A DNA stretch of 37,261 nt, taken from Candidatus Stahliibacteriota bacterium. Its GTDB lineage: Bacteria; Hydrothermota; UBA3073. The position numbers were made by a program, and so were the translations under genes. Position 1 is the first letter of the stretch, and each line of letters begins with the position of its first letter. The notes beneath the pieces are model-generated. The model worked only from the letters and a program-made list of their open reading frames with translations. It did not search any database and was not told the origin of the DNA. Below, one piece after another: positions 3,458 to 27,372 of the stretch. The stretch spans positions 1 to 37,261 of the forward strand of contig DAOUSS010000003.1 in NCBI GenBank assembly GCA_030627085.1, written 5' to 3'.

Positions 3458-3497
3458 TAGATTTTTGACAATACTCTAATAGAGAATAGGAGGGGAT

Positions 3498-3848
3498 ATG
3501 AAGGACTTAAGTGAACTTCGGATATATAAGCTAGCCGTTGATGTAGGAGAGTTGGTCTGGGAAGGAGTACAGGAATGGGAGAATTTTGCAAAGTGGACAA
3601 TCGGTAAGCAAGTTGTGGAATCCGCTGATGGTATTTCAGCTACTATGATGGAAGGATACTATCGCAACCAACCTGGAGACAAAAGGAAATTCTTCCAATA
3701 TGCACTATCATCTGCGAAAGAGACCGAGCTATGGTGCTGGAAAGCAAAAAATCGCAAAATTATGCCTTTGGAAAGGTATTCAGAGATCAAACAGTTGATA
3801 GATGACCTCTTGCCTCAATTAGTCAATTTCATAAAATCGATCCACTGA
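3498..3848 (+). CDS. Four-helix-bundle protein (23S rRNA IVP / Avd-like family)
   Basis: 116 aa; motifs ELRIYKLA, KQVVESADGISATMMEGYYR and FFQYALSSAKE; RBS AGGAGG. Confidence 0.85.
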   Translation: MKDLSELRIYKLAVDVGELVWEGVQEWENFAKWTIGKQVVESADGISATMMEGYYRNQPGDKRKFFQYALSSAKETELWCWKAKNRKIMPLERYSEIKQLIDDLLPQLVNFIKSIH

Positions 3849-3850
3849 TA

Positions 3851-3892
3851 CACCATTCCCTATTAACCATTCGCCATTCACTATTCACTAAT
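3851..3892 (+). repeat. 7-mer tandem array downstream of the four-helix-bundle gene
   Basis: ccattcc ctattaa ccattcg ccattca ctattca ctaat; short complementary remnant aatagagaatagg at 3478-3490. Confidence 0.75.
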
Positions 3893-3940: not shown

Positions 3941-3968
3941 GTAGGGGCGTATTGCAATACGCCCCTAC
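3941..3968. repeat. GTAG-type REP, perfect 28-bp palindrome between convergent genes
   Basis: GTAGGGGCGTATTGCAATACGCCCCTAC. Confidence 0.9.
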
Positions 3969-4038
3969 AGTTTAGGTGATAGTTATCGTAAAGCGTGAGG
4001 TGTAAATAGTAAATTGGAGGGGGGTAAAGGAATGTAAA

Positions 4039-5667: not shown

Positions 5668-5696
5668 ATTATACACCAAAAAACCAGATATGTCAA
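5668..5696 (-). promoter_or_regulatory. Consensus sigma70 promoter facing hisS
   Basis: Minus strand: TTGACA (5696-5691), 17-nt spacer, TATAAT (5673-5668). Confidence 0.75.
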
Positions 5697-5711
5697 GAAA
5701 AAATTGGGCTC

Positions 5712-5895
5712 CCACAGAGAACACAAATAGGTTAAATATTAAAATGCAAAATTAAATTCCAAAATCCAAATGACAAACGGAGGTGGATGTTAGTCATTAG
5801 GCACTGGTCATTGGCCATTAGTCATTGGGCATTTTATTGGAAATTGGTAATTGGAAATTTGATATTATAATTGGCGTTCTTGGTGTCTTGGTGGT
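5712..5895. repeat. Nested inverted arrays: a 7-mer element inside a 9-mer element
   Basis: Order: ccacagagaacacaaa / aaattccaaaatccaaatgacaaa / gtcattggccattagtcattg...ttggaaattggtaattggaaattt / cttggtgtcttggtggt. Confidence 0.7.
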
Positions 5896-5922
5896 TATGA
5901 ATATAGAGGAGTATAAAAATAC

Positions 5923-5951
5923 TTGACATTTCCAAAATGGTATGATAAAAT
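5923..5951 (+). promoter_or_regulatory. sigma70 promoter with extended -10
   Basis: TTGACA (5923-5928), 17-nt spacer, TG-n-TAAAAT (5946-5951); ATG follows at 5962. Confidence 0.75.
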
Positions 5952-5961
5952 AATAGCACTT

Positions 5962-6489
5962 ATGAAAAATATACTTTTAACAGGCAGGCCTGGTATCGGA
6001 AAAACAACCCTCATTTTGAAAGTAGTGAAAACTCTAAATATTGACGCAAGGGGATTCTACACACGAGAGATAAGAAAGGGTAGTGCGCGGGTGGGATTTG
6101 AGATTGTGGAGATAGGCAAAGACAATGCTAAAAGAGAGAGATTTGCACATATCGATTTTGATAAAAGATACAGGGTAGGCAAGTACGGAGTGAATATATC
6201 TATACTCGATGAGATCGGTGTAGAGGCAATAAAAAAGGGCATTGAAGAGAAAAAACTGATAATTATAGATGAAATCGGAAGGATGGAGTTATATTCAAAA
6301 AGATTCCGGGAGATGGTTATCCTTGCTCTAAATTCGTCATCGCCCGTCTTGACAACCATCACTATGAGCCCTCTTCCATTCGTACAGGATATTAAGCAAA
6401 GAAAAGATGTGACTATTTTAGAGATAACAAGAGACAACAGGAATAAGCTTTCAGATGAGATTATCACAAACTTTCAAGCCCTTCCATAA
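5962..6489 (+). CDS. THEP1/NTPase_1-family nucleoside triphosphatase
   Basis: Walker A GRPGIGKT; motifs GFYTREIR, RVGKYGVN and IIIDEIGRME. Start moved to ATG 5962 because the TTG at 5923 is the -35 box. Confidence 0.9.
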   Translation: MKNILLTGRPGIGKTTLILKVVKTLNIDARGFYTREIRKGSARVGFEIVEIGKDNAKRERFAHIDFDKRYRVGKYGVNISILDEIGVEAIKKGIEEKKLIIIDEIGRMELYSKRFREMVILALNSSSPVLTTITMSPLPFVQDIKQRKDVTILEITRDNRNKLSDEIITNFQALP

Positions 6490-7970
6490 ATTTCGGTCAT
6501 TTCCCTGAGCTTTCGTTTCAGCGCCGGTGTTATCTCGTCAGGTAGAAGTCGCCACTCCCAATTTCCTTTGGAGGTAGCAGGTCGGTTCATTCGAGCCTCT
6601 TCTCCCAGACCGAGAATATCCTGCATAGGAAAGATAACCATATTTGCAACAGACATCATAGTAAGTCGAATTAATTCCCAGTGAAGTTCTTCAAAAGGTA
6701 CCTCTCTCCCTATATAACAAAACAATCTCTTTCTTTCGTTAGACTTTGCTTCTCTCTCAAACCATCCCTTTATTGTATTATTGTCATGAGTCCCTGTATA
6801 GAAAACACAGTTTCTCACTACATTATGGGGTATGTAAGGATTTTGGGGGAAGCTTTCACCAAATGCAAAGAGAAGAACCTTCATTCCCGGGAACTTGTAA
6901 CGCTTCATTACATCTCTTACATCAGGTGTGATGACACCAAGGTCTTCAGCAATGATAGGTAAATGGGGAAATCTATCTTTAAGTTTATTAAAGAAATCCA
7001 TTGCTGGAGCCTTTATCCACTTGCCGTTAACAGCGGTCTTTTCTGTTGCCGGAACTTCCCAGTAGGCAACAAAGCCACGAAAATGGTCAACCCTTACAAA
7101 ATCGAATAAATTCAGATTATGCTCTATTCTCCGCAACCACCAATCATACCCCTTCTCCTTTAACATTTCCCAGTTATACAATGGATTTCCCCATAGTTGC
7201 CCCGTTTCACTGAAATAGTCCGGGGGCACACCGGCAACAACGTAAGGTCTTTTTTCGTTGTCAAGTTTAAATATCTCATGATGAGACCAGAGGTCCACAC
7301 TATCATAACTGACATAAATAGGTATATCTCCCATGATTTTAATACCTTTTTTATTAGAATATCTTCTGAGAGACAACCACTGTCTTGCAAAGACATATTG
7401 AATAAATTTTTCCCTCTCAATTTCATTATGAAGTTTCTCTTTTAAAGACCGCAAAGCCTCCGGCTGTTTATCCCGTATCTCAGTCGGCCATTCGCACCAA
7501 GCCTGACCGCGGAAATATACTTTAAGTGCAAGAAAAAGGGCATAATCTTCAAGCCAATAAGAATTTCCTGTACAGAATTCCTTGTATTCACGATTATTTC
7601 TCATCTTTTTAAAGCGCTCATAAGCAAGATTAAGAAGGTTTTTCTTGTAATTGCTAACCCCTTCATAATCGACTTTATCAGCGGGGAATTCAGATAAAGA
7701 AGAAATGTCCTCTCTTTTAACTAAACCGTCTCTTTCTAAAAGTTCCGGGCTTATTAGTAATGAGTTTCCTGCAAAAGCAGATATCGTGCCGTAAGGGGAA
7801 TTACCATAGACTAAATCTGTTGAGGCGAGAGGAAGAATCTGCCATAGACTCTGTTTGGTCTCAACAAGAAAATCGGCAAATCTGTAAGCCTCCGGTCCCA
7901 TATCCCCGATGCCGTATGGGGAAGGAAGGGATGTAATATGTAAAAGAATACCGCTTCCTCTTTTCATCAT
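6474..7970 (-). CDS. malQ: 4-alpha-glucanotransferase (amylomaltase, GH77)
   Basis: Motifs GILLHITSLP, GVPPDYFSETGQLWGNP, RVDHFRG, IAEDLG, YTGTHDN and RMNRP; start set at MMKRGSG. Confidence 0.95.
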   Translation of the reverse strand: MMKRGSGILLHITSLPSPYGIGDMGPEAYRFADFLVETKQSLWQILPLASTDLVYGNSPYGTISAFAGNSLLISPELLERDGLVKREDISSLSEFPADKVDYEGVSNYKKNLLNLAYERFKKMRNNREYKEFCTGNSYWLEDYALFLALKVYFRGQAWCEWPTEIRDKQPEALRSLKEKLHNEIEREKFIQYVFARQWLSLRRYSNKKGIKIMGDIPIYVSYDSVDLWSHHEIFKLDNEKRPYVVAGVPPDYFSETGQLWGNPLYNWEMLKEKGYDWWLRRIEHNLNLFDFVRVDHFRGFVAYWEVPATEKTAVNGKWIKAPAMDFFNKLKDRFPHLPIIAEDLGVITPDVRDVMKRYKFPGMKVLLFAFGESFPQNPYIPHNVVRNCVFYTGTHDNNTIKGWFEREAKSNERKRLFCYIGREVPFEELHWELIRLTMMSVANMVIFPMQDILGLGEEARMNRPATSKGNWEWRLLPDEITPALKRKLREMTEIYGRA

Positions 7971-7977
7971 ATAATTA

Positions 7978-8098
7978 AGTCGTTGAGTCATCGGGTCGTT
8001 GAGTCATTGGGTCATTGAGTCATTGGGTCGTTGGGTCCACAGGACGCTAAGACCCTACGACGCTAAGACGCTATGACGCTAAGACGCTATGACGCTAT
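7978..8098. repeat. Gene-less inverted 8-mer array element
   Basis: About 7 x GTCRTTGR, a 5-nt spacer, then 7 x GACGCTAN; ATTA on both sides (7974-7977 and 8097-8100). Confidence 0.9.
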
Positions 8099-9647
8099 TA
8101 CCTCCCATCCTTTTGTAAATCTTATTGTATTCAAGAATCATCCTGTGGGTATTGAAGTAAGATGCGTTTATTGCAATTGCGTTTTTCATTATCTCTGCCC
8201 ATTTCGTTCTATTATGATAAAATACAGGCAGAATTTCGTTTCCCAGTTTGTCGTAAAGGTTTTCTGCGTCGTCGGTCAAACTCCAGCCTGTTATTCCCTC
8301 GTTACATCCTTCAATCCACCATCCATCCAGCGTAGACAGAGAGGGAATCCCATTATGGGCTGCTTTCATACCGCTCGTTCCACATGCTTCCAGTGGCGGT
8401 TTCGGATTGTTAAGCCAGAGGTCCACTCCCTGTGTGAGAAGTTTTGCAATCCCAATATTATAGTTCTCAATGTATGTTACCTTTATCTTCCCATTTAACT
8501 CTCTGGCAATGTTTATTACTCGTTTTATTATACTTTTTCCCTCATTGTCATGTGGGTGTGCCTTGCCGGAGAATATTATTTGAATATCTCCCAAGCTCTT
8601 TAACCTGTCTAGATTTGAAAATATGATATCTGCCCTTTTATAACCAATAAATCGACGCGCAAACCCTATCGTAAAAGTGTTAAGGTTAAAATCACTTTTC
8701 ACAAATTCAAGTAACCTCTTTTTTGCCTTTATATGGGAGGACCATATTACTTCTGGGGGAACTCTCTCGGCCCCTCCAAGAAGATGAGGATCTTCTCTCC
8801 ATCCGGGTGTATACTCATCAAACAGGGTAGCAAATTCTGGTGATGTCCAGGTAGCAGAATGAACTCCGTTTGTAATTCCATCAATATTGTCCCTTTTAAA
8901 CATCTGCCTTGAGACATCCCTGTGCCTTTTTGATACACCATTAACATAACCTGAACCATAAAACGCAAGTTCTGTCATATCGAGTTCCCTGTCCCACTCC
9001 GGAAAAAATTCTTTTACAAGATTTGTCTCAAATCTATCATGCCCGGCTGGTATTGGTGTGTGAATGGTAAAAAGGCATCTGTTTTTTATTTCATCAATAC
9101 TCATCTTCTTTGACAATTCGTGTATAATAAGCGCAGAATGGCTTTCATTCATATGATAAACTGCATCTTTAATCCCGAGTTTCTTCAACATCCTAATACC
9201 TCCAATACCAAACACAATCTCCTGCATAAGTCGGTACCTCTTATCTCCTCTGTAGAGATATTGTGTTATTTTTCTCGTTTCGGGACTGTTCTCTGGAAGA
9301 TCGGTATCCAGAAAGTAGACAGGAACCTTGTAACCAGATATTCCTTCTATCTCGTATTTCCACGCCCCAATCGCCACATTTTCATCTCCAATGTCCACAT
9401 AAACCCGGTGTGGAAGAAACTCCATTACATCCGTTGGATTCCACTCCTCTGGTAATTCCTCCTGCGTTCCATCCTCCCTCAGTCTCTGTCTGAAGTATCC
9501 CCGGTGATAGATAAGGGTAACTCCAACAATTGGAATTTTGAGGTCTGCTGCAGATCTCAGCGTATCCCCGGCAAGAATGCCGAGACCACCACTATAAGTG
9601 GGAATTTTTTTATCAATACCTATCGCCATTGAAAAATATGCAATCAT
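8079..9647 (-). CDS. glgP: Alpha-glucan (glycogen/maltodextrin) phosphorylase, compact form, GT35
   Basis: Motifs YSGGLGILAGD, HMNESH, FTIHTP, ITNGVH, GFARR and GKAHP; PLP motif EACGTSGMKAAHNG. Confidence 0.93.
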   Translation of the reverse strand: MIAYFSMAIGIDKKIPTYSGGLGILAGDTLRSAADLKIPIVGVTLIYHRGYFRQRLREDGTQEELPEEWNPTDVMEFLPHRVYVDIGDENVAIGAWKYEIEGISGYKVPVYFLDTDLPENSPETRKITQYLYRGDKRYRLMQEIVFGIGGIRMLKKLGIKDAVYHMNESHSALIIHELSKKMSIDEIKNRCLFTIHTPIPAGHDRFETNLVKEFFPEWDRELDMTELAFYGSGYVNGVSKRHRDVSRQMFKRDNIDGITNGVHSATWTSPEFATLFDEYTPGWREDPHLLGGAERVPPEVIWSSHIKAKKRLLEFVKSDFNLNTFTIGFARRFIGYKRADIIFSNLDRLKSLGDIQIIFSGKAHPHDNEGKSIIKRVINIARELNGKIKVTYIENYNIGIAKLLTQGVDLWLNNPKPPLEACGTSGMKAAHNGIPSLSTLDGWWIEGCNEGITGWSLTDDAENLYDKLGNEILPVFYHNRTKWAEIMKNAIAINASYFNTHRMILEYNKIYKRMGGNSVIAS

Positions 9648-9654
9648 AATATTA

Positions 9655-10158
9655 AGTCTTAGAGTCTTGGAGTCATAGAGTCTTAGCGTCGTAGAGTCAT
9701 GGAAAACTTAAATATGTCGTTTGAGGGATCTGTTAAGATATTTAATCATACCGGAACCGAGTTGTGAAACTTTTTCTGCTTGATTATAGACGGCCTCTTT
9801 TTCGTCCTTTGTCAAGTATTTTTGGTCTAATGCTGCGTAACAAAGACTTTGAACTTCCGCTGCCGACCCCTTAGAAATCCATAAACCTCTCAAAAATTCT
9901 TTATCTGTCTCTCTTGCAAACCCCTCGGCTATATTGGACATTGAAGAAACAGCTGCTGATGAAAACTGGCCAGAAAACCTCAAGTCTGTGGAAAGAGCGA
10001 GATTTGCCCTTATTGCATCGTAAACCATTTTTACCAATTTCCGAGCCTCTTTCCAGCACTCCAAGTCCTCAAATCTCTCAATTTTCATAAAACCTCCATA
10101 ACACAATGACACTACAACTCAAAGACGCAACGACACTATGACTCTATGACGCAATGAC
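9655..10158. mobile_element. Inverted 8-mer array element enclosing a four-helix-bundle gene
   Basis: Left arm GTCTTAGA GTCTTGGA GTCATAGA GTCTTAGC GTCGTAGA; right arm GACGCAAC GACACTAT GACTCTAT GACGCAAT GAC. Confidence 0.65.
9708..10088 (-). CDS. Four-helix-bundle protein (23S rRNA IVP / Avd-like family)
   Basis: Motifs MKIERFEDLECWKEAR, SSMSNIAEGFAR and ISKGSAAEVQS; RBS GGAGG before ATG 10088. Confidence 0.92.
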   Translation of the reverse strand: MKIERFEDLECWKEARKLVKMVYDAIRANLALSTDLRFSGQFSSAAVSSMSNIAEGFARETDKEFLRGLWISKGSAAEVQSLCYAALDQKYLTKDEKEAVYNQAEKVSQLGSGMIKYLNRSLKRHI

Positions 10159-13100
10159 TTATTTCACTATCGGTTTGTCTAAGAAATTCGGGGGTATTCT
10201 TCCTGAAAGGATATATATATTCTTCAATGTCTCTCTATACATTTCATCCCATTTCTCATCCCCTTCAGGTGTCTCCATGTCTTCACCCAACCACCAGAAC
10301 CAGTCAGAACCTTCCGCTGCATAAAGTTCTTCCCATACCTCCTCTGGTATATTATCCCATCTTTCCATATCCCTTCTAACCCTCAATAGATACTCCCACG
10401 CCTTGTTCTCTTCATCCTCACCTATCCATATATCAAAATTGCCATTTATCCATGAGCCGGCAGCGAGGTCGTTCAGAATATGCAAAGGTAGATTTTCATT
10501 TAAAAATTCACTAACAGTAAGAGTTTTTACCCAATCTGCTTCTTCTATTTTTGAATAGAATGAATGAAAGAATTCCTTTCCATCTTCTTTATATGTCTCC
10601 CATGCATTCTCTCCGTCCATAATAATGCATACACATACAGGTTCATTTGTATCTTTGAACCTTTTATGTATTTCATAAAGCCTTCCAAGGAGGTCATTCG
10701 CTGCTGCCTTACCGGGCATAGAATTGTATCTGAATCCAATATCGTCAGAGAGCCTTGTATCCCTGAAGATAATTTGCACCTCCCTCTTATCAAATCTCGC
10801 TCTGTATGGTCTGTATTTATCCCGTTCACTAACTTCTCTATTGAGTGATTTTGCAAGTATCTGTTCACCTGTGGCTATCCACCTTACTCCTTTGTTAGCA
10901 AATATTGGAATTATTTGTTTTGCCACGGAACCCTCTGATGGCCACATACCCACGGGTTTTTTACCAAAAATCTTCTTGTAAAAATCTACGGATTTTTTTA
11001 CCTGAACAGCAGCATCCTGTGGATATGAAAATCTGAATGGCAGTTTTTTGTGATAAAGGTCCGTATCATATAGGAGGGGAATGATGGGATGATAGAAGGG
11101 TGTGGTTGTAACCTCTATCTTTCCCTCATCCATAAGCCTTTTATGGAGGGGTACTATCGCCTTCATAATCTCTACACCCTTATCAAGAACTTCACGTTTA
11201 TCCTCTTCTGTAAAATCTCTCTTCTTTTCAATCAGATTCCTTACTGTGATTCTCTTGCCGGTTACAAGTTCAACCTCATTTTTTTGAAATGATGGGTCAA
11301 ACCACGCAAGATTATACCATACCTGCAGGTCTCTAAAATCTTCCACAGAATAATTCCTTAAAGTAGCTTCTATGTCCATTTCTCCGTTTTTTATAATCCT
11401 CTTTTCATAAAGTTCCCTGTATCTGGGATGAGGGTCTATCAGATTTTCTTTATTTAGTGCGAAAAAGTTCATAAGAATATATTCCTTATCCTCTTTTGTA
11501 AGAAGTTCAGCAGGTTTCATAGTTACTTGCATACATTTATCAACAGGCCTACCATTTTCATATATATCTATCTCATCAAGAATTTGTAAGAGTAAGGAAG
11601 GAGTGAGGTTGATTGTAAAATGGACATTGAGATAGTCCTCCAAGATTGCTGCCATATCATAGTAATCCTTTGTTGAATGAAGCCTTACCCAGGGTTTCTC
11701 ATATATACCTGTCTTTCTATCCTTAAAATATCTCGGTTGGTGTTGATGCCACATAATTAGAAGATTGATGGGCTTACCTACCCTTTTTAGTTCTGCTGGT
11801 CTGGTCATTTTCTCTCCCTCTCCTACCACTATAACGGAATTAAACCCCTGAAATCCATCCGGTGACTTATCTGGATTTTTGGGGTCAGGTATCCAGTTCC
11901 CATTCACTATAAACTTATATTGATAAGTTCCTGGTAAAAGGTCCAAGGATATTCTCCATAGATTTCCATCGTTTTCCATAAGAGTGCCGCTCCAGCCATT
12001 GAACTCTCCAGCAATCTGGACAGATTTTGCATCTGGTGCATCGAGTTGAAATTCAACTTTTTTCATTGAAACTCCCTCCTCTTCTGCAACAATATTTGCC
12101 ACATCTCCTGTTCTTAATATAAATATGTCTCCCTCAAGAGGGTTGAGGGTTATAACAAGCCTTTCATAAGCCCTTATCGTATTACCTGTTATTGCCTCCT
12201 CCCATACACCCGGCGCCTGTATGCTCAATACTCTCTTTCTGTCTGATTTATTAAGAGCAACGATCACGCCATCTTTCCCATCTTCCAGAAGATATACATA
12301 TATATCTTTCTCCAAAAGGATTCTCTTTTCCCTACCCCTTCTTATAACACTGTTTTCGTTTCTTATATGGAGCAATCTGGATACATATTGAAGCGTCTCT
12401 TTTTCCATTTCATTTAATTCATCTTCAAACTTCATCATTCTGCGATTGTCAGGGTCACCTGCGCCGGGCATTCCAAACTCATCACCATAAAGAAGCACAG
12501 GCGCCCCCTTTATGGTGAGAAGAAATGTAAGCGCAAGCCGTAATCTTTTATACGATTCTTCTGTCGGCGGAGACGCTCCTTTCCAACCGACCTCTTTCTC
12601 ATCACCTTCCAGTTTACAGTATGTTATAAATCTCGAAAAATCATGGGTCCCAAGAAACGGACACATTATACTTCCTTTCGGATATACTCTATCAGATTCA
12701 CTTAATGCATAATCAAGTGCGAAGAAACCCTCCTTACCAGAAAATACATTTCTGAGTGTCCAGTAAAGCGGATAATCAAGTTGTCCATTAAGGAGATCAT
12801 CTCCAATAAATGCAGCTATCGTTTCTCTGTTGGATATAGTTTCTCCGAAGAGGAAAAAGTCCTTTCCGACTTCTTTGTCCAATCTTTCACGAAATTCTTC
12901 CCAGAATACGATCGGCATATGCTTTACAGCATCAAGTCTTGCACCATCCACTCCCGTTTCCTTTATGAGCCATATTGTAGTATCAATGAGTGCCTGCCTC
13001 GCCTCTTTTTTCTCATGATTTAAGGTCGGAGCGAACTCATCAAACCAGGTAGTAAAGGGGAACTCATCAAACAACCTGATATTTTTTCTCCCGTCTTCCA

Positions 13101-13674
13101 ATTTAAGTTTTGTAAACCAGTCGGGATGTTCTTTCCACCATGGATGGTCTATATGAACATGATTGAGGACGAGGTCAAGCATAATTTTTATATCATGCTC
13201 GTGCGCTTTTTCTACAAGTTCCTTCAACTCCTTCATATTTCCAAATCTCGGTTCGATCTCTGTATGGCTTACAGGCCAATACCCATGATATCCCGTAAAC
13301 TTGTGGTGTGGAGGTAAGGCATCTCTGTATGCTCCCTCGGGTGCCTTATATACAGGAGATAACCAGATGGCACCTATTCCGAGTGATGTAAAATATCCAT
13401 CTTCTATCTTCTGGATTATACCTCTGAAATCTCCACCCAAAAAATTGCATCTCGCATCAAGTTCCGGGTCTTTTATGGGAGAATCGTTTGCTACATTCCC
13501 ATTTTTGAACCTATCAGTTAAGATACAGTATATTACTCTATCCTGCCAGGTGGTAACAGATTTGCACGATTTGAAATCGTGTTTACAATTATCTTGTAGG
13601 CACAAATTCAATTTGTGCCCATGATTATAATCTATGATAGATGTCAAAAAAATCAAAGGTATATACATTAGCAT
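10159..13674 (-). CDS. Multidomain amylolytic enzyme: GH13 + CBM48-like + GH57
   Basis: GH13 motifs YHGYW, DLVLNH, GARLDAVKH, FGE and FLGTHD. CBM48 motifs IAGEFNGW and YQYKFIVNGNWIPDP. GH57 motifs WHQHQP, WPSEG, MDGENAW and AEGSDWFWW. Confidence 0.9.
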   Translation of the reverse strand: MLMYIPLIFLTSIIDYNHGHKLNLCLQDNCKHDFKSCKSVTTWQDRVIYCILTDRFKNGNVANDSPIKDPELDARCNFLGGDFRGIIQKIEDGYFTSLGIGAIWLSPVYKAPEGAYRDALPPHHKFTGYHGYWPVSHTEIEPRFGNMKELKELVEKAHEHDIKIMLDLVLNHVHIDHPWWKEHPDWFTKLKLEDGRKNIRLFDEFPFTTWFDEFAPTLNHEKKEARQALIDTTIWLIKETGVDGARLDAVKHMPIVFWEEFRERLDKEVGKDFFLFGETISNRETIAAFIGDDLLNGQLDYPLYWTLRNVFSGKEGFFALDYALSESDRVYPKGSIMCPFLGTHDFSRFITYCKLEGDEKEVGWKGASPPTEESYKRLRLALTFLLTIKGAPVLLYGDEFGMPGAGDPDNRRMMKFEDELNEMEKETLQYVSRLLHIRNENSVIRRGREKRILLEKDIYVYLLEDGKDGVIVALNKSDRKRVLSIQAPGVWEEAITGNTIRAYERLVITLNPLEGDIFILRTGDVANIVAEEEGVSMKKVEFQLDAPDAKSVQIAGEFNGWSGTLMENDGNLWRISLDLLPGTYQYKFIVNGNWIPDPKNPDKSPDGFQGFNSVIVVGEGEKMTRPAELKRVGKPINLLIMWHQHQPRYFKDRKTGIYEKPWVRLHSTKDYYDMAAILEDYLNVHFTINLTPSLLLQILDEIDIYENGRPVDKCMQVTMKPAELLTKEDKEYILMNFFALNKENLIDPHPRYRELYEKRIIKNGEMDIEATLRNYSVEDFRDLQVWYNLAWFDPSFQKNEVELVTGKRITVRNLIEKKRDFTEEDKREVLDKGVEIMKAIVPLHKRLMDEGKIEVTTTPFYHPIIPLLYDTDLYHKKLPFRFSYPQDAAVQVKKSVDFYKKIFGKKPVGMWPSEGSVAKQIIPIFANKGVRWIATGEQILAKSLNREVSERDKYRPYRARFDKREVQIIFRDTRLSDDIGFRYNSMPGKAAANDLLGRLYEIHKRFKDTNEPVCVCIIMDGENAWETYKEDGKEFFHSFYSKIEEADWVKTLTVSEFLNENLPLHILNDLAAGSWINGNFDIWIGEDEENKAWEYLLRVRRDMERWDNIPEEVWEELYAAEGSDWFWWLGEDMETPEGDEKWDEMYRETLKNIYILSGRIPPNFLDKPIVK
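13564..13620. repeat. REP doublet inside the amylase coding sequence
   Basis: GCACGATTTGAAATCGTGTTTAC and GTAGGCACAAATTCAATTTGTGCCC match intergenic copies (e.g. 31240, 32328). Confidence 0.9.
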
Positions 13675-13688
13675 TTCCCCTCCTATAC

Positions 13689-13748
13689 ATTAGGTCATTT
13701 GGTCATTAAGTCATTAGGTCATTAAGCACGATTTGAAATCGTGCCTAC
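13689..13748. repeat. 8-mer array arm plus GTAG-type REP
   Basis: (ATTAGGTC-like) x4, then GCACGATTTGAAATCGTGCCTAC. Confidence 0.8.
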
Positions 13749-13749
13749 A

Positions 13750-14949
13750 TTATTCCTCTTCGAGCAGTTTATTTACTTTTTCCGTTATTACAAATAGGGT
13801 TTCTTCTACGGAACGCTTGCCAGATAGAGCTGCTTCCATCTCTTGATTGACAACATTCTCTACTGCCGGGTAATCTGGTATAACAGGTCTCGGAACAGCG
13901 GTCTTCATCTGATGAAGAAAGGTCTCAAGATACGGATGTTTTATAATATCAACATCATCAAATGAGTTTACATTCACTGGAATCTGTCCCAGTTCGTTAG
14001 CCCATCTTATTTGATTTTCTTTGGAAACAAGAAATTTGAGGAAGTCAAAAGCAAGTTCTTTATCTTTTGTCCCTCTGAATATTACCATATTTGTTCCCCC
14101 TACTGTCGTAGCAGTCCCTGCTGGTCCCCTCGGTATCATACCAACACCAAAGTTTATACCTATGTTAAGGAGGGTTTTAATCCTCCAGGGGCCACTCAAT
14201 ACCATCGCGTACTTCTCATTCTGGAAGCCCATATCGGGCTCAACAGCACCCGCTTTCCATGCGCCTGCCTCTATCTTATACTTACTATAGAGGTCTACCT
14301 TGAACTGTAAACCCTCTACAGCTTCTTCCGTATTGAGAACACATTTCCCTTTGTCTATAAATCTTGCTCCAAATGTATAGAAGAATGGAAGTGTCCACCA
14401 TAATGTATTCCTCATACCAAATCCGAATATTTCTTTCTCTACGTCTGTGAGTTTTTCCCCGTAAGAAATAAATTCATCCCAAGTTGACGGCGGCTTCTCA
14501 GGGTCAAGTCCTGCCTCCTTAAAAAGCTTTTTGTTGTAAAAGAGACATATACAGTTTGTCTGGTCTGGTATACCATATATCTTGCCATCTATAATGTTTC
14601 CAGAGACAGCGGCAGGAACAAGTTCATCCACAAGTTCCCCTGCTCCAAATCCATCGAGAGCACATACCCCACCCCTCAATGCAAGTCTACTCACAAATGC
14701 ACAGTCCACCCTGGCTATATCAGGGGCTGTACGGGTTGCAAGTGCTGTGAGAACCTTTTGCTCTGTTCCATTAAAGGGTATTCTTTGAATCTCGACCTTT
14801 ATACCCTTTAGTTCCTCATAATTTTGGACAATCTCCGTGAATGTTCTATACTCCTCATCGTTATAACTCACCCAGATTGAGAGGCTACGAGCCAGAATTA
14901 TCTGGAATAATACTGTAACTATGAGAAAAACGGTAAAACTTTTCTTCAT
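13750..14949 (-). CDS. Sugar ABC transporter periplasmic solute-binding protein
   Basis: Signal peptide with no lipobox Cys; motifs APDIAR, DGKIYGIP, LFYNKKLFKEAGLDPEKPPSTWDEF and GPW. Confidence 0.9.
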   Translation of the reverse strand: MKKSFTVFLIVTVLFQIILARSLSIWVSYNDEEYRTFTEIVQNYEELKGIKVEIQRIPFNGTEQKVLTALATRTAPDIARVDCAFVSRLALRGGVCALDGFGAGELVDELVPAAVSGNIIDGKIYGIPDQTNCICLFYNKKLFKEAGLDPEKPPSTWDEFISYGEKLTDVEKEIFGFGMRNTLWWTLPFFYTFGARFIDKGKCVLNTEEAVEGLQFKVDLYSKYKIEAGAWKAGAVEPDMGFQNEKYAMVLSGPWRIKTLLNIGINFGVGMIPRGPAGTATTVGGTNMVIFRGTKDKELAFDFLKFLVSKENQIRWANELGQIPVNVNSFDDVDIIKHPYLETFLHQMKTAVPRPVIPDYPAVENVVNQEMEAALSGKRSVEETLFVITEKVNKLLEEE

Positions 14950-14967: not shown

Positions 14968-15070
14968 ACCAAATCAAAATTATCAATTAGCAATTAACAT
15001 TTCAAAATTATTTCCCGCATTGCCTTTATCTTCCTCCATTGCTAATTGCTAATTTTACATTTTGAATTTT
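14968..15070. repeat. Gene-less inverted 7-mer array element
   Basis: caattag caattaa catttca ... ttgctaa ttgctaa ttttaca ttttgaa. Confidence 0.7.
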
Positions 15071-27273: not shown

Positions 27274-27372
27274 GTGGGGCAAACCTTCAGGTTTGCTTAC
27301 AAACGCAAGGCTAAAGCCTTGCCCTACACTTTCAAACAAACGCAAGGCTAAAGCCTTGCCCTACACTTTCAA
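27274..27372. repeat. REP cluster with exact 37-bp tandem duplication
   Basis: GTGGGGCAAACCTTCAGGTTTGC, then 2 x ACAAACGCAAGGCTAAAGCCTTGCCCTACACTTTCAA. Confidence 0.9.

Follow-up and report, generated by a model that had tools for sequence, protein, structure and literature searches.

A four-helix-bundle gene between inverted octamer arrays in a bacterial sugar-metabolism operon: a candidate transposase-free cassette of the intervening-sequence type

Four-helix-bundle proteins, also called S23p, have been known for decades from intervening sequences of ribosomal RNA and, to our knowledge, are still without a function. In this work we analysed a stretch of 37,261 nucleotides from a Candidatus Stahliibacteriota bacterium (hereafter, the window), in which a gene of this family lies between two inverted arrays of tandem 8-mers at positions 9655-10158, within an operon of sugar-metabolism genes. 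The closest experimentally studied relative of this arrangement is the 23S rRNA intervening sequence, and the anatomy described for Coxiella is the anatomy found here. The published account of the Coxiella intervening sequence describes an open reading frame (ORF) of this family, a terminal stem of 28 bp and, 5' of the ORF, three to four tandem heptamers whose copy number varies among strains; the sequence is regarded as selfish, and it is excised by RNase III, which cuts at the first repeat (PMC4990558). The original prediction for the window had drawn an analogy with intervening sequences, and this analogy gains a direct link from the tandem heptamers at the Coxiella stem (PMC4990558). The Coxiella ORF is reported to be decaying (PMC4990558), whereas the window gene has a good ribosome-binding site and its homologues are under purifying selection. 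The cassette at 9655-10158 shares with the ORF-bearing 23S intervening sequences of Coxiella, Leptospira and others the protein family and the stem-forming terminal inverted repeats around the ORF; it differs from them in its position between protein-coding genes (the amylase/glgP junction of an mRNA operon, not a 23S rRNA helix), in its longer arms (5.5-7 units of 8 nt), and in that excision from the transcript of the window operon is here only inferred, by analogy.

The cyanobacterial short tandemly repeated repetitive (STRR) sequences represent a class of intergenic arrays of tandem heptamers or octamers. Other arrays of this kind have been reported as convergent pairs of the GGGAATC heptamer in Xanthomonas, and also in Nostoc (PMC4692102), as "global regulator sites", pairs of octa- and heptanucleotide arrays that lie where operons of Geobacter metallireducens meet or join genes (PMC2700814), and as TAACTGA repeats in Beggiatoaceae, cyanobacteria and Bacteroidetes (PMC4679880). 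The arrays described below resemble the published ones in their 7-8-nt units, in the number of units (about 3-6), in their intergenic location, often within operons and often as convergent pairs, in a length that varies between close relatives, and in that some of them overlap stop codons. In contrast, the published papers describe one unit per genome, and here many units are present per genome, each tied to a cassette. In the available main texts of these three papers there is no mention of S23, four-helix or intervening sequence; the additional files of PMC2700814 list the genes that adjoin the paired arrays and might already show four-helix-bundle genes. Likewise, no link of this gene family to flanking arrays outside rRNA was found in the full-text literature, a scope that excludes subscription journals and supplements, where an earlier mention is possible.

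A third point of comparison is Avd, the protein of diversity-generating retroelements that belongs to the same Pfam family. Avd is described as a pentameric, positively charged barrel, a form common to both, which binds structured RNA next to complementary upstream and downstream segments (bioRxiv 10.1101/2023.10.23.563531). The present locus differs in that no reverse transcriptase, template repeat or variable repeat is found, and its neighbours are glycoside-metabolism genes. The host genome (G000) comprises 1.93 Mb in 347 contigs and is 94.5% complete; the window is its contig C318, and C20, C56, C204 and C276 are other contigs. A profile search of this genome with the reverse transcriptase family PF00078 gave no match.

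Anatomy of the cassette and of its protein

Arrays were delimited with Tandem Repeats Finder (TRF) and the genes were named from profile matches. The region contains the following features:

10159-13674, minus strand: amylase of 1171 aa, a fusion of glycoside hydrolase families 13 and 57 (GH13+GH57); stop codon at 10159-10161
10104-10158, minus strand: array D, 5' arm of the cassette when read on the sense (minus) strand; about seven tandem 8-mers, G-type on the sense strand (TRF)
9708-10088, minus strand: four-helix-bundle gene of 126 aa (PF05635/TIGR02436); TAA at 9708-9710
9655-9703, minus strand: array C, the 3' arm of the cassette (TRF, 9655-9698/9703); unit AGTCTTAG, 5.5 copies of the 8-mer
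8079-9647, minus strand: glgP, a phosphorylase-family protein of 522 aa (profile match)
8043-8097, no strand: array B, half of a gene-less inverted pair (TRF); GACGCTAA, 6.9 copies of the 8-mer
7979-8037, no strand: array A, the other half of the gene-less pair (TRF); GTCATTGG, 7.4 copies of the 8-mer
6474 to about 7970, minus strand: GH77 MalQ, 4-alpha-glucanotransferase (profile match)

All the genes of this region are on the minus strand, in the order GH13+GH57 fusion, 126-aa ORF, phosphorylase-family protein and MalQ, and the four arrays occupy the intergenic spacers of the operon. Array D, for which TRF gives a 24-mer reading (equal to three 8-mers) of 2.3 copies and the 8-mer GACTCTAT in 3.5 copies, begins at the base directly after the amylase stop codon. 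The likely start of the four-helix-bundle gene is the ATG at 10088, with GGAGG at 10093-10097, four bases ahead; array C stops 7 nt short of the glgP start codon (9645-9647). On the other side of glgP, array B holds the final six codons and the TAG stop of this gene (8079-8097), it is separated from array A by 5 nt (8038-8042), and on the sense strand array A precedes the malQ start by about 8 nt. The anatomy that had been proposed from the letters alone, a four-helix-bundle gene between inverted 8-mer arrays and a gene-less pair with a 5-nt gap, is thus confirmed by TRF and PF05635, and its coordinates hold. The same prediction had placed both structures at TAA(T) at gene junctions; on the plus strand TTAAG is present at both left ends, and the arrays either begin at stop codons or overlap them, but no consistent target can be defined. 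A search of the window against Rfam at the gathering thresholds gave no match.

The four arrays belong to one family, with one unit type in A and C and the complementary type in B and D. The cassette arms, C and D, are 76% complementary to each other, or 74-78% over 45-50 nt, whereas the values are 71% for A with B, 77% for A with D, and 86% over 43 nt for B with C across glgP, C being the best partner of B. The inverted score is 23 for the cassette arms and 21 for the gene-less pair, and the 99th percentile of 3000 random array pairs from the same genome is 21. Terminal inverted repeats predicted to form a stem around the ORF, as in the 23S rRNA intervening sequence, are therefore a feature of this locus, and the gene-less pair at 7979-8097 can be assigned to the array family of the cassette arms. 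The two structures had been interpreted as full and empty versions, autonomous and non-autonomous, of one element. They share the array family, and gene and arms appear to travel together (see below), but A and B are only 71% complementary and fold weakly, and the term autonomous is unproven because we know of no mobility activity of a PF05635-family protein. Since the arrays match as a family but the predicted fold pairs them across glgP, the notion of full and empty versions holds at the level of the array family.

The 126-aa protein can be assigned to the PF05635/TIGR02436 four-helix-bundle family ("23S rRNA intervening sequence protein") by its match to PF05635 (E 4e-25, 88.5 bits versus a cut-off of 33.8) and to TIGR02436 (E 5.6e-23, 81.2 bits versus a cut-off of 24); the solved pentameric XCC0516 (PDB 2GSC) was matched at E 1.5e-8. 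In the alignment, the nearly invariant residues Q35, S42, N46 and E49 and the invariant E72 are present in the window copy. The conserved polar motif of the family has been published as GxxRxxxSxxxNxxE (PMC3936711); the Arg of this motif is Ser in the window copy, and an Arg pair that is commonly conserved reads Ser-Ser. A tblastn search of a phage collection gave no match. The dN/dS ratio was 0.02-0.13 in 10 unsaturated pairs of homologues (three further pairs were saturated), as expected for a protein that is kept by purifying selection and that therefore works.

Recurrence of gene and arms and turnover of their sites

The association between gene and arms was evaluated by scoring inverted arms (arrays of 7-9-mers, score of at least 14) within 220 nt on either side of the gene. 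Among 41 genomes of the phylum (codes G0xx), PF05635 was found in 28, in 0 to 16 copies per genome, and inverted arms bracket the gene in 24 of the 29 loci that were fetched from these relatives. A cross-phylum sample was obtained by scanning species-representative genomes with a six-row alignment; it comprises 80 loci, 75 of them with both flanks evaluable. Inverted arms were present in 66 of these 75 loci and in 10 of 276 control positions shifted by 1.3 or 1.9 kb. The 80 loci come from Desulfobacterota, Ignavibacteria, Bipolaricaulota, Omnitrophota, Chloroflexota, Acidobacteriota, Nitrospirota, Bacteroidota, Verrucomicrobiota, Firmicutes, a Daviesbacteria genome, Meiothermus and Proteobacteria; the Bacteroidota loci from cultured Flavobacterium, Olleya, Aquimarina, Hymenobacter and Sphingobacterium show arms. 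This sample represents one large subfamily (the "SNIAEG" clade), since it was drawn with one peptide pattern, and the set from the relatives includes other subfamilies. The host genome has 14 PF05635 matches, mutually divergent, and at least four of them are fragments or contain a stop. When the 1349 ORFs with both flanks available are ordered by their inverted flanks, members of this family take places 8, 9, 23 and 27, and two more copies (in C56 and C276) show arms by eye. Six of eight own loci have inverted arms, and each locus has its own repeat unit. The co-occurrence test that the original prediction had proposed is hence strongly positive in the three sets.

The properties of the arms were determined from 96 positive loci, pooled from the cross-phylum set, that of the relatives and the host genome. 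The arms have a median of 34 nt by alignment; TRF detected an array of period 7-9 in 161 of the 192 flanks, with a median of 4.4 copies (interquartile range, IQR, 3.6-4.9) and 31 nt. Most loci with an assigned period have units of 7 nt (53 loci), fewer have 8 nt (10 loci) or 9 nt (7 loci), and the inward-reading strand has more G than C in 83 of the 96. A typical cassette consists of a PF05635 gene and two convergent complementary arrays of about 4-5 units of 7-9 nt; here, 5.5-7 units of 8 nt. The duplex between cognate arms has a median energy of -35.5 kcal/mol, and 86% of the 96 loci fall below the 5th percentile of non-cognate pairs; the complementarity of the arms is locus-specific.

Other candidate properties of the arms were tried and rejected. 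As frame-independent translation stops, all three inward frames are stopped in 34% of the 192 arms, versus 20% in shuffles and 19% outward, an effect that is modest and not general. The downstream arm is not a source of ATG codons (81 of 96 have none), and a G+T-rich upstream arm was not upheld (mean 0.59, 23 of 96 below 0.5). The repeat period is a weak clade marker on the protein tree (12 changes versus 15.4 in shuffles).

Comparison between loci indicates that gene and arms recur across phyla as one unit that has moved to unrelated sites. The arms are shared in 32% of 112 pairs with at least 55% protein identity, and in 1-4% of more distant pairs. They are shared despite unrelated flanks and different phyla, for example between a Methylomirabilota and a Proteobacteria locus (L150 and L162), between Syntrophorhabdus (L141) and Omnitrophota (L144), between a Dehalococcoidia locus (L165) and L184, and between the C20 copy of the host genome and a copy in G040. 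The arm unit differs between cassettes, yet both arms stay complementary and the unit tracks the phylogeny of the protein. Among syntenic orthologues the unit consensus shows 16 differences in 90 positions versus about 54 expected at the synonymous rate, a constraint that is only an indication because the rotation-minimised Hamming distance biases the differences downward.

The sites themselves are variable. The glgP-amylase junction is without a four-helix-bundle gene in G003, G005, G007, G009 and G011, in agreement with the empty sites that had been predicted; in G003, of the same genus, it carries an inverted pair of the same family around 217 nt of other repeats. At the malQ-glgP junction, G002 (same genus) keeps a homologous gene-less pair, G003 and G007 have a different pair, only 2 nt are present in G005, and the genes overlap in G009 and G011. 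A junction in an Mrp-like operon is an ATGA stop/start overlap in G000, it holds a 72-nt gene-less inverted pair in G005, and G001 and G003 carry in it two different cassettes with different arms; in the three filled cases a stop and a ribosome-binding site with ATG are found on both sides of the insert. In G004 the C20 cassette site measures 88 nt, and in G001 it holds an IS200/RAYT-like gene (RAYT, REP-associated tyrosine transposase; REP, repetitive extragenic palindrome) with REP-like ends. Metagenome run X5, from another population, contains the window cassette (about 89% identical), in which array D is longer by an 8-nt unit inserted at 10121; runs X6 and X7 cover both neighbours but not 9705-9991. 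The A-B pair is replaced by unlike sequence of 166, 171 and 65 letters in X5, X6 and X7, respectively. In close relatives one and the same site can thus be vacant, hold a gene-less pair or hold another insert, which shows that cassettes have been gained, lost and replaced. The concept of an element, the link between the gene family and the inverted arrays, and the empty sites are well supported by these results; the original prediction as a whole is supported in part.

Gene-less arrays are abundant in the host genome. A total of 779 merged arrays with a period of 7 or 8 or multiples were detected, with very diverse units; 663 of them are intergenic, i.e., outside crude ORF calls that cover 79% of the DNA. 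Strict arrays occur at 16.2 per 100 kb, versus 0 in block shuffles. They belong to the STRR-like class of intergenic heptamer and octamer arrays, with tandem units of 7-8 nt and many copies per genome. Where less than 30 nt separate neighbouring arrays, 38 pairs are convergent, their G-rich strand pointing inward, and 5 are divergent. For the arms of a resident cassette, a median of 28 other arrays among the 779 give a match; the median is 1.5 for the arms of 66 foreign cassettes (p 4e-6) and 4.5 for 60 unit-permuted controls, whose heavy tail reaches 72. This fits a family of full and gene-less members, and gene-less arrays matching the resident arms are found scattered over the genome. In 18 sampled genomes a higher gene copy number goes with a higher array density (rho 0.66, p 0.003), a correlation that is suggestive only because the genomes are kin and one phylum member that is 99% complete, G039, is a clear exception. 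The arrays seen in G039 (L124-L126) are heptamers, AACTATT-type and others.

Contigs of the host assembly and of the relatives often end at arrays, and in contigs of four metagenome runs there are depth spikes and many chimeric joints at arrays (window 5687-5973, 7983-8269 and 13436-13722); arrays are therefore a likely cause of assembly fragmentation. In C204, at about 6335-10177, a hydrogenase/Nuo-like operon (names from translations only) has same-family arrays at every junction, and each gene appears bracketed.

Proposed processing in the transcript and alternative explanations

On balance, we favour the view that 9655-10158 belongs to a widespread kind of cassette that lacks a transposase and is of the intervening-sequence type, that it lies here in sense orientation in an mRNA operon, and that its arms are processed by RNase III in the transcript. 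According to this proposal, cassettes would ride in host transcripts, the arms would pair in the read-through transcript to give an imperfect stem of about 30-35 bp, and host RNase III, whose gene is present in the genome, would cut this stem as has been shown experimentally for the rRNA version. The cut would make the insert tolerated, set the expression of the cassette gene, or both. Slippage within the arms and template switching between them may keep them repetitive and complementary; both are established mutational processes between quasi-palindromic arms, and could maintain them without selection. Cassettes are co-oriented with both neighbours in 82 of 99 cases (83%), a mild excess over a baseline of 72% taken from G000 alone.

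Several observations weigh against this proposal. The only ORF of the cassette is the 126-aa protein, with no further Pfam family and no PADLOC match, hence no transposase. Most of the 779 arrays have no PF05635 gene nearby, and G039 has about 10 strict arrays per 100 kb and no PF05635 match. Ordinary genes, glgP included, also score high for matching flanking arrays, because arrays of the same family sit at successive junctions. Single repeat units at the same positions in relatives could be seeds of in-place growth rather than remnants, and the repetition of about 10 nt on either side of the three inserts at the Mrp-like junction is not a firm target-site duplication, as selection for intact flanking genes may explain it. 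Regarding the RNA, the arms are paired in the predicted fold of the isolated cassette, but with a z of only -1.64; the gene-less pair as a hairpin has -38.7 kcal/mol versus -35.3 for dinucleotide shuffles (z -0.9), and the minimum-energy fold of the 2.2-kb sense transcript uses C:B (38 bp) and D:A (31 bp), not the local arms, so that two independent hairpins are not predicted by thermodynamics alone. Arm mismatches show no significant sense-strand excess of G·U over A·C (163 versus 133, p 0.09; per locus 40 versus 27, p 0.14), and duplex energy does not differ between sense and antisense (50 of 96); the arms could hence pair in DNA as well as in RNA. The three tests aimed at RNA-level selection (mismatches, duplex energies and the fold of the gene-less pair) were thus negative or neutral.

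A possible, although doubtful, alternative is that the arms are putative binding sites for the pentamer encoded by the cassette itself, which would bind about five units of the cognate repeat as RNA or single-stranded DNA. Such binding would serve autoregulation, protection or recognition during mobility, its other targets would be the gene-less arrays scattered over the genome, and it can coexist with an RNA stem. The similarity of arm units follows that of the proteins, the unit consensus is conserved far below synonymous divergence (16 versus about 54 of 90), and the size of the arms is narrow, at about 4-5 units; the excess of arrays matching resident arms (28, versus 1.5 for foreign decoys and 4.5 for permuted units) points in the same direction. 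Solved family members and Avd are reported to be pentameric (PMC4990558; bioRxiv 10.1101/2023.10.23.563531), Avd is reported to bind RNA stem-loops (bioRxiv 10.1101/2023.10.23.563531), and the Geobacter study had independently suggested that its paired octa- and heptanucleotide arrays serve a global regulator yet to be identified (PMC2700814). Nevertheless, the period changes at least 12 times on the protein tree, slightly below the shuffles (mean 15.4; 3 of 300 reach 12), the equation of five units with five subunits is numerology at present, the score floor of TRF truncates short arms, the unit distance used is biased downward as mentioned above, and G039 retains arrays without the gene. In its widest form, the pentamer would be a sequence-specific reader of its own repeats, with about one subunit per unit, and gene and arrays together a hitherto unrecognised mobile module that recognises itself and has no transposase; the STRR-type arrays and "global regulator sites" of many bacterial genomes would derive from its gene-less copies, and rRNA intervening sequences would be copies that landed in rRNA. 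We put this forward only tentatively.

It is unlikely, in our opinion, that the cassette is a transposon-like element at the DNA level, in which the arms are terminal inverted repeats, forming a hairpin or cruciform, for a structure-specific enzyme supplied in trans by the host or by another element; the gene would then be a passenger or an accessory factor and the gene-less pairs miniature derivatives. The presence, absence and replacement of inserts at identical junctions, the joint transfer of gene and arms across phyla, the stop/start overlap and ribosome-binding site duplicated around three inserts, the convergence of close array pairs and the equal energetics of both strands are all in line with it. 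The RAYT-like gene at the C20 cassette junction in G001 likewise agrees, so these junctions do receive hairpin-type mobile DNA. Against it, arm sequences vary between cassettes, which argues against a single sequence-specific transposase, the 14 copies of the genome are divergent, none of them nearly identical, no clear target-site duplication was seen, and PF00078 is absent from the 94.5% complete genome. The cassettes resemble miniature inverted-repeat transposable elements and REP/RAYT systems in being intergenic and hairpin-forming, in having gene-carrying and gene-less versions and in recurrent insertion at the same junctions; they differ in that the cassette has no transposase or Y1 enzyme, its termini are not conserved between cassettes, and its arms are tandem arrays and not unique inverted repeats. 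With integron gene cassettes they share a small promoterless ORF, an imperfect palindromic site recognised by its shape and not by its sequence, and read-through expression; integron cassettes have instead one attC at one end and need an integrase and a fixed attI, whereas the cassettes described here are scattered singly at operon junctions.

The stronger pairing across glgP raises the question of an architecture of the whole operon, in which arrays would pair across entire cistrons and set the processing or stability of the polycistronic mRNA, the four-helix-bundle gene being incidental here. The best complementarity is indeed that of B with C (86%), the minimum-energy fold uses C:B and D:A, and operons such as that of C204 have same-family arrays at each junction. 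However, such a fold takes no account of co-transcriptional folding, where C is the first partner that D meets, relatives that have this operon do not conserve its junction arrays, and the tie to one gene family across phyla is left unexplained; we regard this explanation as improbable. Finally, arrays that are generic slippage microsatellites of any spacer, at which four-helix-bundle genes merely land or survive without forming a cassette, would agree with the 663 intergenic arrays out of 779, with matching arrays around ordinary genes, with the arrays of G039, with the single units in relatives and with the malQ-glgP array content swapped for unlike sequence in three other populations, but this explanation is already disfavoured, and very improbable, as it accounts neither for the 66 of 75 loci versus 10 of 276 controls across phyla, among them genomes not necessarily rich in arrays, nor for arms common to related proteins at unrelated sites, nor for unit conservation beyond synonymous divergence.

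Other repeats of the window and meaning for the family

The window contains further genes and arrays of these classes:

3498-3848, plus strand: second four-helix-bundle gene (PF05635, E 1.9e-15; TIGR02436, 1.1e-16)
3851-3888, plus strand: heptamer array directly 3' of this gene, its downstream arm (TRF)
5790-5860, no strand: nested gene-less convergent arrays with GTCATTG-type and ATTGGAA-type units (TRF); complementary units at 5738-5777
13688-13724, no strand: solo array of the same GTCATT-type family as the cassette arrays, 4.6 copies of an 8-mer (TRF)
14970-15054, no strand: gene-less inverted heptamer pair between two genes (TRF)

The second gene has a short matching upstream arm at about 3476-3492, and its inverted flank score of 14 ranks 80 of 1349 ORFs. 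The solo array has a terminator-like hairpin on one side and the amylase ribosome-binding site on the other. This amylase ORF (10159-13674) joins in one protein a GH13 alpha-amylase domain, CBM48/AMPK-type glycogen-binding modules and a GH57 domain. The glgP product is short: it matches only positions 288-583 of the 713-position phosphorylase model, with a weak match to the starch-synthase catalytic domain, and its C-terminal residues are encoded by the array and vary among relatives. A second, REP-like class of repeats, formed by short GC-rich hairpins followed by CCTACA, was observed in the window at 13727-13750, 3944-3969 and 27299-27372, the last being a perfect 37-nt tandem duplicate; outside the window it was seen in L024 (G003:C19, about 610-870) and in L211 (G001:C2, about 53580-53640 and 54150-54200, contig coordinates), where similar elements flank the IS200/RAYT-like gene that occupies the exact place of a four-helix-bundle cassette in G000.

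Another cassette of the host genome, L001 (G000:C56:1-2442), has CGTGAAT-type arms and lies beside an ORF that is Cas1-like as read from its translation. Its location echoes the four-helix-bundle genes that have been published inside cas operons (PMC3936711); that survey of cas genes reports 18 such genes within cas operons, one of them between cmr3 and cmr2, and reads them as possibly CRISPR-related (PMC3936711). The view of a cassette of the intervening-sequence type explains them as insertions.

This view would join two loose ends, the S23p proteins that lack a function and the unexplained arrays of 7-9 nt of cyanobacteria, Xanthomonas, Geobacter and Beggiatoaceae. Should gene and arrays make up a single element, the rRNA intervening sequence would be a special case of a much larger family of cassettes residing in operons, and the arrays would gain a candidate protein partner; plausibly, the cassette bears on the origin of bacterial heptamer arrays in general. 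Genes annotated as "four helix bundle protein" in cas, ribosomal and metabolic operons would then have to be annotated as insertions and not as members of the pathway. The hypothesis would be directly testable in cultured carriers, since the loci of Flavobacterium, Olleya, Aquimarina, Hymenobacter and Sphingobacterium have arms.

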